Shown here in pieces: positions 28,581 to 31,126 of a DNA stretch of 64,000 nt. Source of the stretch: Escherichia coli (GTDB lineage Bacteria; Pseudomonadota; Gammaproteobacteria; Enterobacterales; Enterobacteriaceae). The notes beneath the pieces are model-generated. The model did not search any database. It was not told the origin of the DNA and worked only from the letters and a program-made list of their open reading frames with translations. Positions within the stretch are counted from its first letter, which is position 1, and each line of letters starts with the position of its first letter. The stretch lies in assembly GCF_041248615.1 (NCBI RefSeq), contig NZ_CP158426.1. One strand, given 5' to 3'. The position numbers and the translations under genes were made by a program.

Positions 28581-28613
28581 TGGCGAATTAATCAGCAGTC
28601 AGCAGCGTGGCAC

Positions 28614-28641
28614 TTGCTAAGGAGAGCGTAAGGTTTATAAT
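28614..28641 (+). promoter_or_regulatory. Sigma70 promoter for glyU
   Basis: TTGCTA-N16-TATAAT ending about 17 bp before the tRNA 5' end. Confidence 0.5.
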
Positions 28642-28658
28642 GCCTTACGCATCTCGAA

Positions 28659-28732
28659 GCGGGCGTAGTTCAATGGTAGAACGAGAGCTTCCCAAGCTCT
28701 ATACGAGGGTTCGATTCCCTTCGCCCGCTCCA
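28659..28732 (+). tRNA. glyU: tRNA-Gly (CCC anticodon)
   Basis: 74-nt GCGGGCGTAGTTCAATGGTAGAACGAGAGCTTCCCAAGCTCTATACGAGGGTTCGATTCCCTTCGCCCGCTCCA; acceptor stem GCGGGCG/CGCCCGC, anticodon loop CTTCCCAAG, T-loop GGTTCGATTCC, encoded CCA. Confidence 0.95.
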
Positions 28733-28747
28733 GAATCTCCCCTGGTG

Positions 28748-28770
28748 GAGAAGACTAAAAAAGTCTTCTC
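28748..28770 (+). terminator. Hairpin downstream of glyU
   Basis: GAGAAGACT-aaaaa-AGTCTTCTC perfect 9-bp stem, but no clear U-tract. Confidence 0.4.
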
Positions 28771-29229
28771 TGTCAGCAACTTAAACAGTTACCTATTTAA
28801 TTTGCTTAGGAGTTCTACCATTGTGATCCGCCCTTAGTAACTGTCACGTTAAGTTACACGGTGAGATGACAGTATAACCTAACGTTGGCGGCAGTTGCAC
28901 CTCTCACACCGCGATAGCACAACGTGAAGATAAAGCCCATCCTGGCATTGTAATGTCATCGACAGACTGAACACACGCATTTAAGCCCGATGTGCGGCCT
29001 TGTGGCTGCGTAAACAGGTTTATGGTGATATTGGTCCTTGCAAACCATATGCAAGCTCTATCAGCGTTTCAGCCACGCTCCCAACGGGTACACGGTTATC
29101 CTGATAAGGTGTGATCTTTCTGACAATCTGATGAAGTCGCTACGCTCCCGCTTGTTGCTGTATCACCAACGGGGCTTTATGGTTTCTATTGTCTATAATA
29201 ATCTCACAATTCCCCTGCATGAGGTTGAT

Positions 29230-29436
29230 ATGACTGTTAGCTACAAGATTACTTATGAGCATAGAGACGGTGATCAAATTAGAATGGAAGAGGTTTTATT
29301 CCATTCAGAGCATGAACCAACAAAAGATGAAATTCATGATGCAGTAAGAAAAGATACTGTGAGATTTAATTCTCCATCTAATGGAGTAACGGCTGTTTCA
29401 GGGTTTAAAGTGATTTCGGTTGTCCCTGTTCCATGA
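29230..29436 (+). CDS. Small hypothetical protein (68 aa) in the accessory island
   Basis: Inside track ORF 29038..29436; internal ATG at 29230 has GAGG upstream and a TATAAT -10 about 35 bp upstream; product MTVSYKITYEHRDGDQIRMEEVLFHSEHEPTKDEIHDAVRKDTVRF... is acidic and soluble; low GC. Confidence 0.45.
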   Translation: MTVSYKITYEHRDGDQIRMEEVLFHSEHEPTKDEIHDAVRKDTVRFNSPSNGVTAVSGFKVISVVPVP

Positions 29437-29445
29437 ATGGTTATA

Positions 29446-29468
29446 GAAGGGGCTGGAAGCCCCTAATT
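29446..29468. terminator. Hairpin between the convergent small genes
   Basis: GGGGCT-gga-AGCCCC stem followed by AATTATT, between the 29436 and 29470 stop codons. Confidence 0.45.
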
Positions 29469-29469
29469 A

Positions 29470-29790
29470 TTACTTCTTAATATCGCCAGTGCATTGATAT
29501 TCGATAGTCACAAGTGTTTGCATACAACCAGATGAAGAAGGTTGTGAACATTGAGAAGTGAATCCACCAAAAGGCTCGGCTCCTGAATATCCCCAAGCGG
29601 CACAACGCGCTTTGGCTGCATTCATGCCTTGTTGTGGATCTACAACAGGACTTTCAAACATACCGTAAGAATAACTCATCCTAACTGTGCCGTCTGATTT
29701 GCTTCCACCAGTTGGAACGAGTTGTTTTTTTGTTGCACATCCAGAAATAATCAATGTTGAAGCAAGTAACAGCATTAAACTTTTGCGCAT
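29470..29790 (-). CDS. Putative Cys-rich lipoprotein (106 aa), unknown function
   Basis: Signal peptide MRKSLMLLLASTLIISGC with lipobox ISGC; four further Cys in the mature part; low GC. Confidence 0.6.
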   Translation of the reverse strand: MRKSLMLLLASTLIISGCATKKQLVPTGGSKSDGTVRMSYSYGMFESPVVDPQQGMNAAKARCAAWGYSGAEPFGGFTSQCSQPSSSGCMQTLVTIEYQCTGDIKK

Positions 29791-29934
29791 GTAAATAATC
29801 CCAAGAGATAATGGTTATGTATTGATTTAAAGCGTTTTTAGATTAATGCATTAACTTAGCAAAATTAAGTCTTTTCTGATTGTTTGCAGAGTAAAAATGA
29901 GTTGCTTTCGAAATTATTTCGGATGTTTATTGTA

Positions 29935-30102
29935 TTACGGTTTTTCAAACCGTCTAACTATTGTCGCTATTGAATGGGCAATAATAGCAAGAGGATTCAT
30001 TTCGTCATTGGAGGCAACAAAAAGTCGGTAACTGATAGCTACAACGAATGAAGCAATAACGAGAAAGCGGATAGTGCTAAGATGTTTTGAAGATAAATGC
30101 AT
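29935..30102 (-). CDS. Possible small membrane peptide (55 aa), speculative
   Basis: Manual translation MHLSSKHLSTIRFLVIASFVVAISYRLFVASNDEMNPLAIIAHSIATIVRRFEKP; one predicted TM helix; AGGGGG 4 nt upstream of ATG; the RBS lies in a CCCCCT/AGGGGG hairpin. Below the 60-aa track cutoff. Confidence 0.25.
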   Translation of the reverse strand: MHLSSKHLSTIRFLVIASFVVAISYRLFVASNDEMNPLAIIAHSIATIVRRFEKP

Positions 30103-30442
30103 AACGCCCCCTAAATGAATGTGAGGGGGATTAAATCATGCAAATTTGTTGTGTGCAATACTGGTAATTTATCCTAATAGTCTACTATTCACCTCAATCT
30201 ACGTCAACCAATATTTGATGTAGATTTGATTTTCTTTTAAAAACAATATTTTGCAATTTGTTGGGTTTTGGGGTTAGGTTGTTTTTTGGACGTTTCCATC
30301 AAGTGTAAAGATACGTTTAGCCTTCATAGTGAGTTCAGTTACTGTCTTTTTCTCTGAAATCGGCGCATACGTGATCATCGCTTAACGAGAAGAGCAGCGC
30401 CGTCAGGTCCATGCAGCGACAATTCTGAAATATCAGGAGGCA

Positions 30443-30994
30443 TTACGCTTCCTGCTCTTTCTTGATACGTTGCACCGTTTGTGTGCTGACACTGAAATCT
30501 TTTGCTACGCTCCGAATTGATCCACCATTCGCGAGAGCGGCAGCAATTCCCGCTCGATCAATTGCTTTTCCATTACCACGTTTTGCTATACGTCCAGCGG
30601 CCTTAGCTGCGGCGATCCCCTCACGCTGGCGCTCAAGCATCATTTCACGTTCCATTTGTGCCACTGCTGCAAGCACTGTGAGCATCATATTCCCTGCGGG
30701 AGAGTTCTTCCCTGTCTTAAAGTCTTCTTTATGGAAATGCACAGACACGCCGCGCTTTGTTAATTGCTCAACCGTTGCCAGTAGGTCGGCTGTATTACGG
30801 CAAAGTCGATCAATACTGTGAACATGCAAAACATCACCTTCCCGCACATAGTTCATCATTGCCTCAAACTGTGGGCGCTGGGTATTCTTGCCTGACGCTT
30901 TATCTTCAAAGACTTTATCAAGAGCTACTCCAGCTAATTGACGGTCTGTGTTTTGTTGCACAGTCGATACCCTAATGTATCCAATATTAGCCAT
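30443..30994 (-). CDS. Serine recombinase (resolvase/invertase family, 183 aa)
   Basis: N-terminal MANIGYIRVSTVQQNTDRQ with catalytic Ser in the YIRVST context, conserved DRLCRN, C-terminal HTH (SIRSVAKDFSVSTQTVQRIKK); AAGGA RBS. Confidence 0.85.
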   Translation of the reverse strand: MANIGYIRVSTVQQNTDRQLAGVALDKVFEDKASGKNTQRPQFEAMMNYVREGDVLHVHSIDRLCRNTADLLATVEQLTKRGVSVHFHKEDFKTGKNSPAGNMMLTVLAAVAQMEREMMLERQREGIAAAKAAGRIAKRGNGKAIDRAGIAAALANGGSIRSVAKDFSVSTQTVQRIKKEQEA

Positions 30995-31022
30995 TTTCTT
31001 TATTCCTTCTGTGTTGATTTGT

Positions 31023-31126
31023 GTGTAGTGATTATTGATCGTGTTGATTAGGTGTGTAAAGGACTTTTTTCACTACGAAATTCGAAGGTTTTTAGTGTGG
31101 TGATTTAGCCTGCTTTATCACTACAC
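31023..31126. promoter_or_regulatory. Candidate res/crossover-like site: four copies of a GTGTAGTGAT / ATCACTACAC motif in alternating orientation upstream of the recombinase gene
   Basis: GTGTAGTGAT at 31023-31032, CACTAC at 31071-31076, GTGTGGTGAT at 31095-31104, ATCACTACAC at 31117-31126; the last two form a 32-bp palindromic site with a 12-bp spacer. Confidence 0.4.

Follow-up and report, generated by a model that had tools for sequence, protein, structure and literature searches.

Two Escherichia coli genes that lie tail to tail at positions 29,230 to 29,790 of a 64,000-nucleotide (nt) stretch of contig NZ_CP158426.1 (assembly GCF_041248615.1; 'the window' denotes this whole stretch) are, in the reading that we consider probable, unrelated cargo in a variable slot of a phage-satellite-like island at the tRNA gene glyU, one of them encoding a lipoprotein that would act by docking on an outer-membrane (OM) barrel. 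We are highly confident of the identity and context of the two genes; the barrel-docking mechanism, by which the lipoprotein would bring about conversion or exclusion, is offered as a tentative and somewhat doubtful proposal. A sequence-only reading of the window had described a small acidic protein and a cysteine-rich lipoprotein with a hairpin terminator between them. Both open reading frames (ORFs) are there, the 68-residue small-protein gene at 29230–29436 on the plus strand and the 106-residue lipoprotein gene at 29470–29790 on the minus strand, 33 nt apart. Their GC content is low, as that reading said (36.7% and 41.7%, respectively, against 49.5% for the window), and GC falls from about 50% to 30–43% over 29000–33500. 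RefSeq annotation already covers both genes, as one YecR-family lipoprotein and one hypothetical protein. The observation of a convergent gene pair with a hairpin stands, and its interpretation is partly supported.

By its family hidden Markov model (HMM), lipobox, four cysteines and predicted fold, the 106-residue protein is a YecR-family lipoprotein. It matched Pfam PF13992 (YecR) over the complete model (positions 1–73 of 73; E 1.8e-23; 83 bits, cut-off 27), and its RefSeq name is likewise YecR-family. The signal starts with MRK, continues through a hydrophobic core and ends in the lipobox ISGC with Ala at +2; signal and lipobox read MRKSLMLLLASTLIISG up to the lipobox Cys, which is invariant in 30 aligned family members. 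The four further cysteines (C63, C81, C89 and C100), which the sequence-only reading had noted along with the lipobox, are invariant in the family alignment and align with cysteines of Salmonella and K-12 YecR. The sequence also matched chain 1 of PDB 7BGL, which is YecR in the Salmonella LP-ring (E 9e-10). An AlphaFold2 (AF2) model built with 30 homologues had a predicted local distance difference test (pLDDT) score of 88.1, and its sole significant fold match in the PDB was the same chain, 7bgl_1 (E 7.8e-6; template-modelling (TM) score 0.85, by target), on which the predicted model superposed with a root-mean-square deviation of 2.0 over 84 residues. The lipoprotein is therefore not an orphan but belongs to PF13992, a family with a solved structure. 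Comparison with the Cronobacter gene gave a nonsynonymous divergence (pN) of 0.06 and a synonymous divergence (pS) of 0.75, a pattern that indicates purifying selection on the lipoprotein gene.

Core YecR is a flagellar OM lipoprotein. Salmonella YecR forms a belt outside the 26-mer L-ring, with 26 copies that pair one to one with FlgH (10.1101/2020.12.05.413195), and core yecR is bound and directly activated by FlhDC (PMC4183435). The L-ring forms without YecR, whose role is not yet settled (PMC11756786). In addition, a genome-wide screen named yecR as one of four uncharacterised genes of E. coli on which lambda depends in its host, meaning that their knock-out lowered lambda infection (PMC2900299); this hints at a connection between the YecR fold and either phage entry or the envelope.

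The island gene is a xenologue of core yecR and not an orthologue of b1904, because the two proteins share only 29% identity (K-12 YecR, b1904) and because core yecR is present in 5,419 of 5,426 complete E. coli genomes (99.9%) whereas the island segment is found in 131 of them (2.4%), always on the chromosome. An invariant PTGGS(K/R)(A/S)DG segment marks the mobile lineage to which the island copy belongs and is missing from core YecR; a AWGYSGAEPFGG segment is likewise found in the mobile lineage and absent from core YecR. The earlier view that neither gene looked like a core gene is right for this diverged copy, but the YecR family as such does have a nearly universal core member. For one of the two ORFs, then, the family does include a core gene; the copy is a xenologue, however, and both ORFs are conserved elsewhere, so that the first reading is corrected on this point, not refuted.

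The relatives of the island lipoprotein live on mobile elements. The closest of them, with 75–92% identity, come from Cronobacter, Lonsdalea, Pantoea, Citrobacter, Serratia and Enterobacter, and relatives with 50–60% identity were found in beta- and alphaproteobacteria. The enterobacterial genes sit at island edges by tRNA-Gly, tRNA-Thr or tRNA-Leu, beside a resolvase or a short tyrosine recombinase, and the Serratia gene is inside a phage-like region. A pattern scan of IMG/VR found YecR-like lipoproteins on 55 viral contigs, many of them 35–60 kb long. The only recurrent neighbour in these contigs was a CI-like repressor (HTH_3 plus Peptidase_S24), which in about 15 of the 50 loci lay at most two genes away; it took part in at least six arrangements and was often upstream and in the same direction. 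These counts come from rough ORF calling and clustering and include near-duplicate contigs. In Bordetella phage BPP-1, Bbp28 is YecR-like and stands alone on the opposite strand, a few genes away from cI, and in a 34-kb siphophage a YecR-like moron is wedged into the tail module before the tape-measure gene. YecR-like genes also occur on Xanthomonas plasmids and on 2.1-kb mobilizable plasmids of Salmonella, Shigella flexneri and Klebsiella pneumoniae, where they are the only named gene (PMC4619425); on plasmid NZ_CP100751.1 (2,109 bp) and similar ones, the YecR-family lipoprotein is 56% identical to the island copy. Two of the three hosts of these 2.1-kb plasmids, K. pneumoniae and S. flexneri, are non-flagellated. 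No function for Bbp28, the plasmid copies or the mobile YecR-like lineage is described in the literature that we searched.

This distribution bears on a second explanation of the lipoprotein, namely that it is an alternative belt subunit of the flagellum, replacing or supplementing core YecR on FlgH around the L-ring and altering the OM bushing, for example in its robustness or in sensitivity to flagellotropic phages. The family, the predicted fold and the four cysteines are those of FlgH-bound YecR, E. coli is flagellated, and a homologue of the neighbouring small protein adjoins a flagellin gene in Pantoea eucrina. By contrast, the protein is only 29% identical to core YecR and carries the invariant N-terminal PTGGS(K/R)(A/S)DG motif of its own lineage. 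Its relatives are carried by the 2.1-kb plasmids of non-flagellated K. pneumoniae and S. flexneri and by phages of varied hosts. Distant chromosomal relatives are not in flagellar surroundings either: we found no flagellar context for the Herbaspirillum and Roseateles copies, which lie outside flagellar loci, and discarded such a setting for distant YecR-like genes. A scan for a sigma-28 promoter upstream of the YecR-like gene returned a best match of 10 of 16 positions, and we rejected a flagellar sigma-28 promoter on this result. Carriage by non-flagellated hosts and the lineage motif weaken the flagellar explanation, which we judge unlikely.

Upstream of the YecR-like gene, homology to YecR-like loci of other genera (L005–L008) passes the start codon and reaches 29882, so that 29791–29882 on the minus strand is presumably the ribosome-binding and promoter-proximal region of this gene. 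Sigma-70-like sites were found farther upstream, at 29956–29929 and 30008–29981.

The mechanism that we tentatively propose would run as follows. The lipoprotein would be exported by Sec, lipidated at Cys18 and, having Ala at +2, sorted by Lol to the inner leaflet of the OM, and its four invariant cysteines would form two disulfides. The single domain would then dock on the outside of an OM beta-barrel, as YecR does 1:1 on FlgH. Transcribed from a promoter of its own for as long as the element resides in the host, it may benefit that element by altering an envelope property of the host, either as lysogenic conversion or by excluding competing phages. Export, lipidation, sorting and disulfides are drawn from established lipoprotein biology, docking from the YecR–FlgH structure and the role from the position of the gene. 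A broader and more doubtful possibility is that the YecR-like lineage of phages, plasmids and islands constitutes an undescribed class of lysogeny-expressed OM factors that dock on a phage receptor or on the L-ring barrel and either exclude phages or remodel the envelope, with the glyU copy being one of them.

Several points weigh against this proposed role. Neither protein matched a known defence or exclusion family in PADLOC or PHROG, and we found no homology of the lipoprotein to known exclusion lipoproteins. The sole solved precedent of the YecR fold is flagellar and not related to phages, and the CI-adjacency counts are as rough as described above. The island is a truncated remnant in which IS1 cuts the gene in some strains, and a current benefit is not assured.

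We found that the two genes are most likely unrelated, independent cargo and not a functional pair, because they do not travel together elsewhere. In Cronobacter, a YecR-like gene with 91% identity converges on an unrelated 86-residue ORF; in an Enterobacteriaceae cassette, the YecR-like gene is followed by a co-directional 146-residue ORF; and in Pantoea, it is the last gene of an island, with no convergent partner. Conversely, homologues of the small protein occur without YecR-like genes: one follows a tRNA-Gly with a different convergent gene, one lies beside a ParD-like gene, one sits between DUF2543 and cytochrome bd-II, and in Pantoea eucrina (5001–7126 of that locus) one lies 187 nt past tRNA-Thr(CGT) and converges on a gene for a 632-residue flagellin. 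This flagellin is the second flagellum-related neighbour of the small-protein family, besides the YecR-like gene, and may be there by chance. The two genes co-occur only among E. coli copies with 99% identity or more, and both ORFs are intact in 120 of the 131 E. coli carriers. The claim that these genes form a pair is therefore not borne out: none of the diverged relatives has the partner seen here, and neighbourhood comparison revealed no conserved linkage across diverged genomes.

The arrangement could also be explained by a functional two-gene module of the toxin–immunity, regulator–target or effector–immunity type, with a shared terminator as a result. Such a module would fit the convergent spacing of 33 nt with a single hairpin and the presence of both genes in each of the E. 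coli copies of the segment (120 or more). These copies, being at least 99% identical, represent one inheritance event, however, and diverged relatives all have either another partner or none. The numbers of carriers are also far apart, with one viral contig carrying the small protein against 55 carrying the lipoprotein, and with the small protein at only four loci in 100,044 species genomes, and the hairpin trails YecR-like genes whatever the neighbour. We consider a module very improbable, and it is already largely refuted by the absence of co-occurrence.

As the sequence-only reading had it, a GC-rich hairpin lies between the genes, at 29448–29464, and is a plausible shared terminator. It is a hairpin of no defined strand (AGGGGCT-GGA-AGCCCCT, with a 7-bp stem and a 3-nt loop), situated between the two stop codons; a terminator scan picked it out, and its stem is part of the minimum-free-energy fold on both strands. 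Taken alone, the signal is weak: the fold has a z of about −1.5 in its 56-nt context, three terminator-like sites were seen in 1.9 kb where 1.4 ± 1.1 were expected, and the tails after the hairpin are weak on both strands (TTCTAT and AATTATTACTT). Similar GC-rich hairpins follow YecR-like genes in other loci, 5–9 nt past the stop codon (L002/L004, L006, L008, L009 and L024), and homologues of the small protein have different hairpins of their own. On these comparisons, the hairpin appears to be the terminator of the YecR-like cassette, moving with the lipoprotein gene. By position, it could also end the convergent transcript of the small ORF.

The 68-residue ORF is, to judge from its divergence pattern, a real gene under purifying selection. 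A word-indexed search retrieved only near-identical Escherichia copies of it, whereas an exhaustive search found 13 diverged homologues of 52–68 residues and 40–68% identity. Against a 68%-identical orthologue in another genus, pN was 0.18 and pS 0.75 in this frame, whereas the other two frames gave a pN above pS. Each diverged homologue starts at MxxxYK, which corresponds to the ATG at 29230. The RefSeq protein WP_024017360.1 (85 residues) starts 17 codons farther upstream, and its extension (29179–29229) overlaps a conserved non-coding element and is not conserved in frame. On these grounds, we rejected both the 85-residue start and the maximal ORF of 132 residues, and prefer the 68-residue start that the sequence-only reading had chosen. 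That reading also called the product acidic, which holds only mildly (isoelectric point 5.7; 11 Asp and Glu against 8 Lys and Arg), and cytoplasmic, which is consistent with its lack of a signal peptide.

The small protein has no counterpart among known domains. We found nothing significant for it in Pfam, NCBIfam, PHROGs, PADLOC, the PDB (by sequence or by fold) or BFVD, and none of the 14 family members matched Pfam. Of the two proteins, only the lipoprotein thus has a profile match, over the full PF13992 model. Structure prediction separates them in the same way: the AF2 model of the small protein is a beta-beta-alpha-beta arrangement with a pLDDT of 80.5 and no fold match, whereas the lipoprotein has the YecR fold. 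The family occupies four loci in 100,044 species genomes, all of them in Enterobacterales, and the one viral contig that carries it is this island. With phmmer, the small protein matched giant repeat proteins (E 4.5e-10 to 8e-4) through four to six weak stretches. It resembles the Listeria–Bacteroides or InlB B-repeat (Flg_new) in a beta-hairpin motif, Y-x-[IV]-x-[YF]...DG...E-x-V, but profile comparison gave a probability below 3% and we judge the likeness not significant. We accordingly rejected the small protein as a stand-alone repeat of this type, given the profile comparison and the lack of a Pfam match in all 14 members. It is a member of a rare Enterobacterales family in which these searches found no known domain.

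The claim that these genes are island cargo is well supported. The segment is present in 131 of 5,426 E. coli genomes, and homology to K-12 stops exactly where the tRNA ends, at 28732; K-12 has ygeQ and the ETT2 remnant at this place. The tRNA gene, glyU (tRNA-Gly(CCC), 28659–28732, plus strand), was located by ARAGORN and Rfam, and its 3′ end is the left island junction, attL. Positions 28600–30500 are 100% identical to the chromosome of E. coli NRZ14408, and the annotation of that record, NZ_LT599825.1, places the locus between actS(ygeR)-glyU and the remains of ETT2 (IS1, truncated yqeI, yqeH and yqeG). In O26:H11, the island is intact: it measures 13.5 kb, the last 22 nt of the tRNA recur as a direct repeat at its far end (28604–28625 of that locus), and an integrase gene lies at that end. 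Its genes include Rep-O-like, major-head-like and tape-measure-like ones, and by this gene content the glyU island looks like a phage satellite.

The window retains the left 4.8 kb of the island, which ends at IS1 (33521). This element (33521–34218, minus strand; annotated in the 100%-identical NZ_LT599825.1) cuts the island short and abuts the remnant of yqeI. A search of the window for the attR repeat found none. At 33521–34765, where IS1 meets the truncated yqeI, almost nothing is left of the ETT2 type III secretion remnant that in K-12 extends from yqeI to glyU, and the right two-thirds of the island are gone as well.

These losses raise the possibility that both genes are decaying relics, passengers without a current function in E. 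coli. The replication, capsid and integrase genes have been lost by IS1-mediated deletion, the segment is disrupted by IS1 or IS2 in several strains (in strain 127, IS1 breaks the lipoprotein gene), and just 2.4% of genomes carry it. Decay would be hard to reconcile with both ORFs being intact in 120 of 131 carriers, with strong purifying selection on both genes across genera, or with a lipoprotein that retains its signal, its lipobox, all invariant residues and its terminator. We regard this explanation as quite unlikely, a little more so than the flagellar one.

Within the island, the region from 28733 to about 29963 appears to be a variable cargo slot at the integrase-distal, tRNA-proximal end, because sister islands at thrW and glyU have the serine recombinase and the sequence inward from 29964 in common with this one, whereas the small genes at their tRNA-proximal end are others. 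Directly before the small ORF, at 28991–29212 on the plus strand, is a conserved non-coding element that multi-copy alignment and a covariance model mark as probably a structured RNA. Copies with 71–80% nucleotide identity lie about 280 nt past glyU, thrW and leuX at island ends, and further copies occur inside an island of Nissle 1917 and on plasmids. The element is present in 846 of 5,426 E. coli genomes (about 16%) and is never annotated. The genes that follow it vary, and include the small protein described here, DUF1643, DUF4145, AbiJ-NTD4 and hypothetical proteins.

The consensus structure of this element has 41 pairs, of which 96.5% are paired across ten copies, compared with about 40% in slid controls. 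Double-change cells number 21, compared with 8.1 ± 2.0 in shuffled alignments, and none of 500 shuffles reached 21; G-U pairs favour the plus strand. The covariance model scored the element at 220.8 bits and finds it only at such island ends. A search of Rfam 15 gave no match at E ≤ 1, and we rejected a known RNA on that basis. The model was silent beside the YecR-like genes of the phage contigs searched, which argues that the element goes with the end of the island rather than with the lipoprotein. It is possible that this element of about 200 nt serves the cargo slot as a leader or is a small RNA, and it may be more interesting than the two genes themselves.

Inward of the slot lies the gene for a serine recombinase of the resolvase/invertase type (30443–30994, minus strand; PHROG 125, DNA invertase, E 7.7e-62). 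It marks the inner edge of the slot and precedes the YecR-like gene in the same direction, an arrangement reminiscent of hin-fljB. We found no convincing flanking inverted repeats and, among the matches listed in a search that matched 737 genomes, no inverted arrangement of the locus, and we rejected phase variation by this recombinase for these two reasons. An apparent breakpoint in the lipoprotein gene of strain 127 was also rejected as an inversion; it is the IS1 insertion mentioned above. Beyond the recombinase gene, positions 30995–33520 form about 2.5 kb of AT-rich DNA (30–40% GC) that has no ORF of more than 65 residues and is unannotated in any record. This region contains two units of about 60 nt with internal palindromes (31913–32030), a perfect 23-nt tandem (32207–32252) and a 15-mer that occurs three times at 31517–31835. 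It precedes the Rep-O-like gene in the intact island and, by its repeats and place, may hold an origin or regulatory sites. At the tRNA end, 80 nt past glyU, the 22 nt at 28812–28833, within the island arm, are 82% complementary to the 5′ part of the tRNA-Gly gene (28661–28682) and form an inverted copy of it.

As found, the two genes are ordinary island cargo of little importance. YecR, however, is structurally defined and functionally unexplained, and it has a well-conserved sister lineage on phages, tiny plasmids and satellites, including those of non-flagellated hosts. This mobile lineage suggests a more general OM job for the YecR fold, and a mobile copy such as the one at glyU offers a simple handle on the function of that fold.

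Among known systems, core YecR (E. coli b1904; Salmonella, 7BGL chain 1) is one of the closest. Like the island copy, it matches PF13992 over the whole model, is of similar length (107–111 residues compared with 106) and has a lipoprotein signal and the four aligned cysteines. The two differ in locus, core yecR being located between azuC and ftnA and the island copy in the glyU island; in the PTGGSKSDG motif, which the island copy carries and core YecR does not; and in their kin, because the nearest relatives of the island copy are on phages, plasmids and islands. Bbp28 and the genes of the 2.1-kb and Xanthomonas plasmids share 37–56% identity with the island copy over 82–94% of its length. 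Each is a lone, moron-like gene among unrelated neighbours and belongs to the same mobile lineage; they differ from the island copy in host and in carrier, which is a true phage in one case and tiny mobilizable plasmids in the other.

A further comparison is with Cor (phi80 and N15), Llp (T5), Bor (lambda) and TraT, which are OM lipoproteins of prophages or plasmids, active during the residence of the element. We found no sequence or fold similarity between these proteins and the island lipoprotein, and the comparison serves as a working analogy and not as an assignment of membership. Like them, the YecR-like copy is a small OM lipoprotein of a mobile element, encoded by a cassette that has its own terminator and is often by the immunity region. 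Llp and Cor act on FhuA, and the logic of docking on a barrel is one that they would have in common with the role proposed here for the YecR-like lipoprotein.

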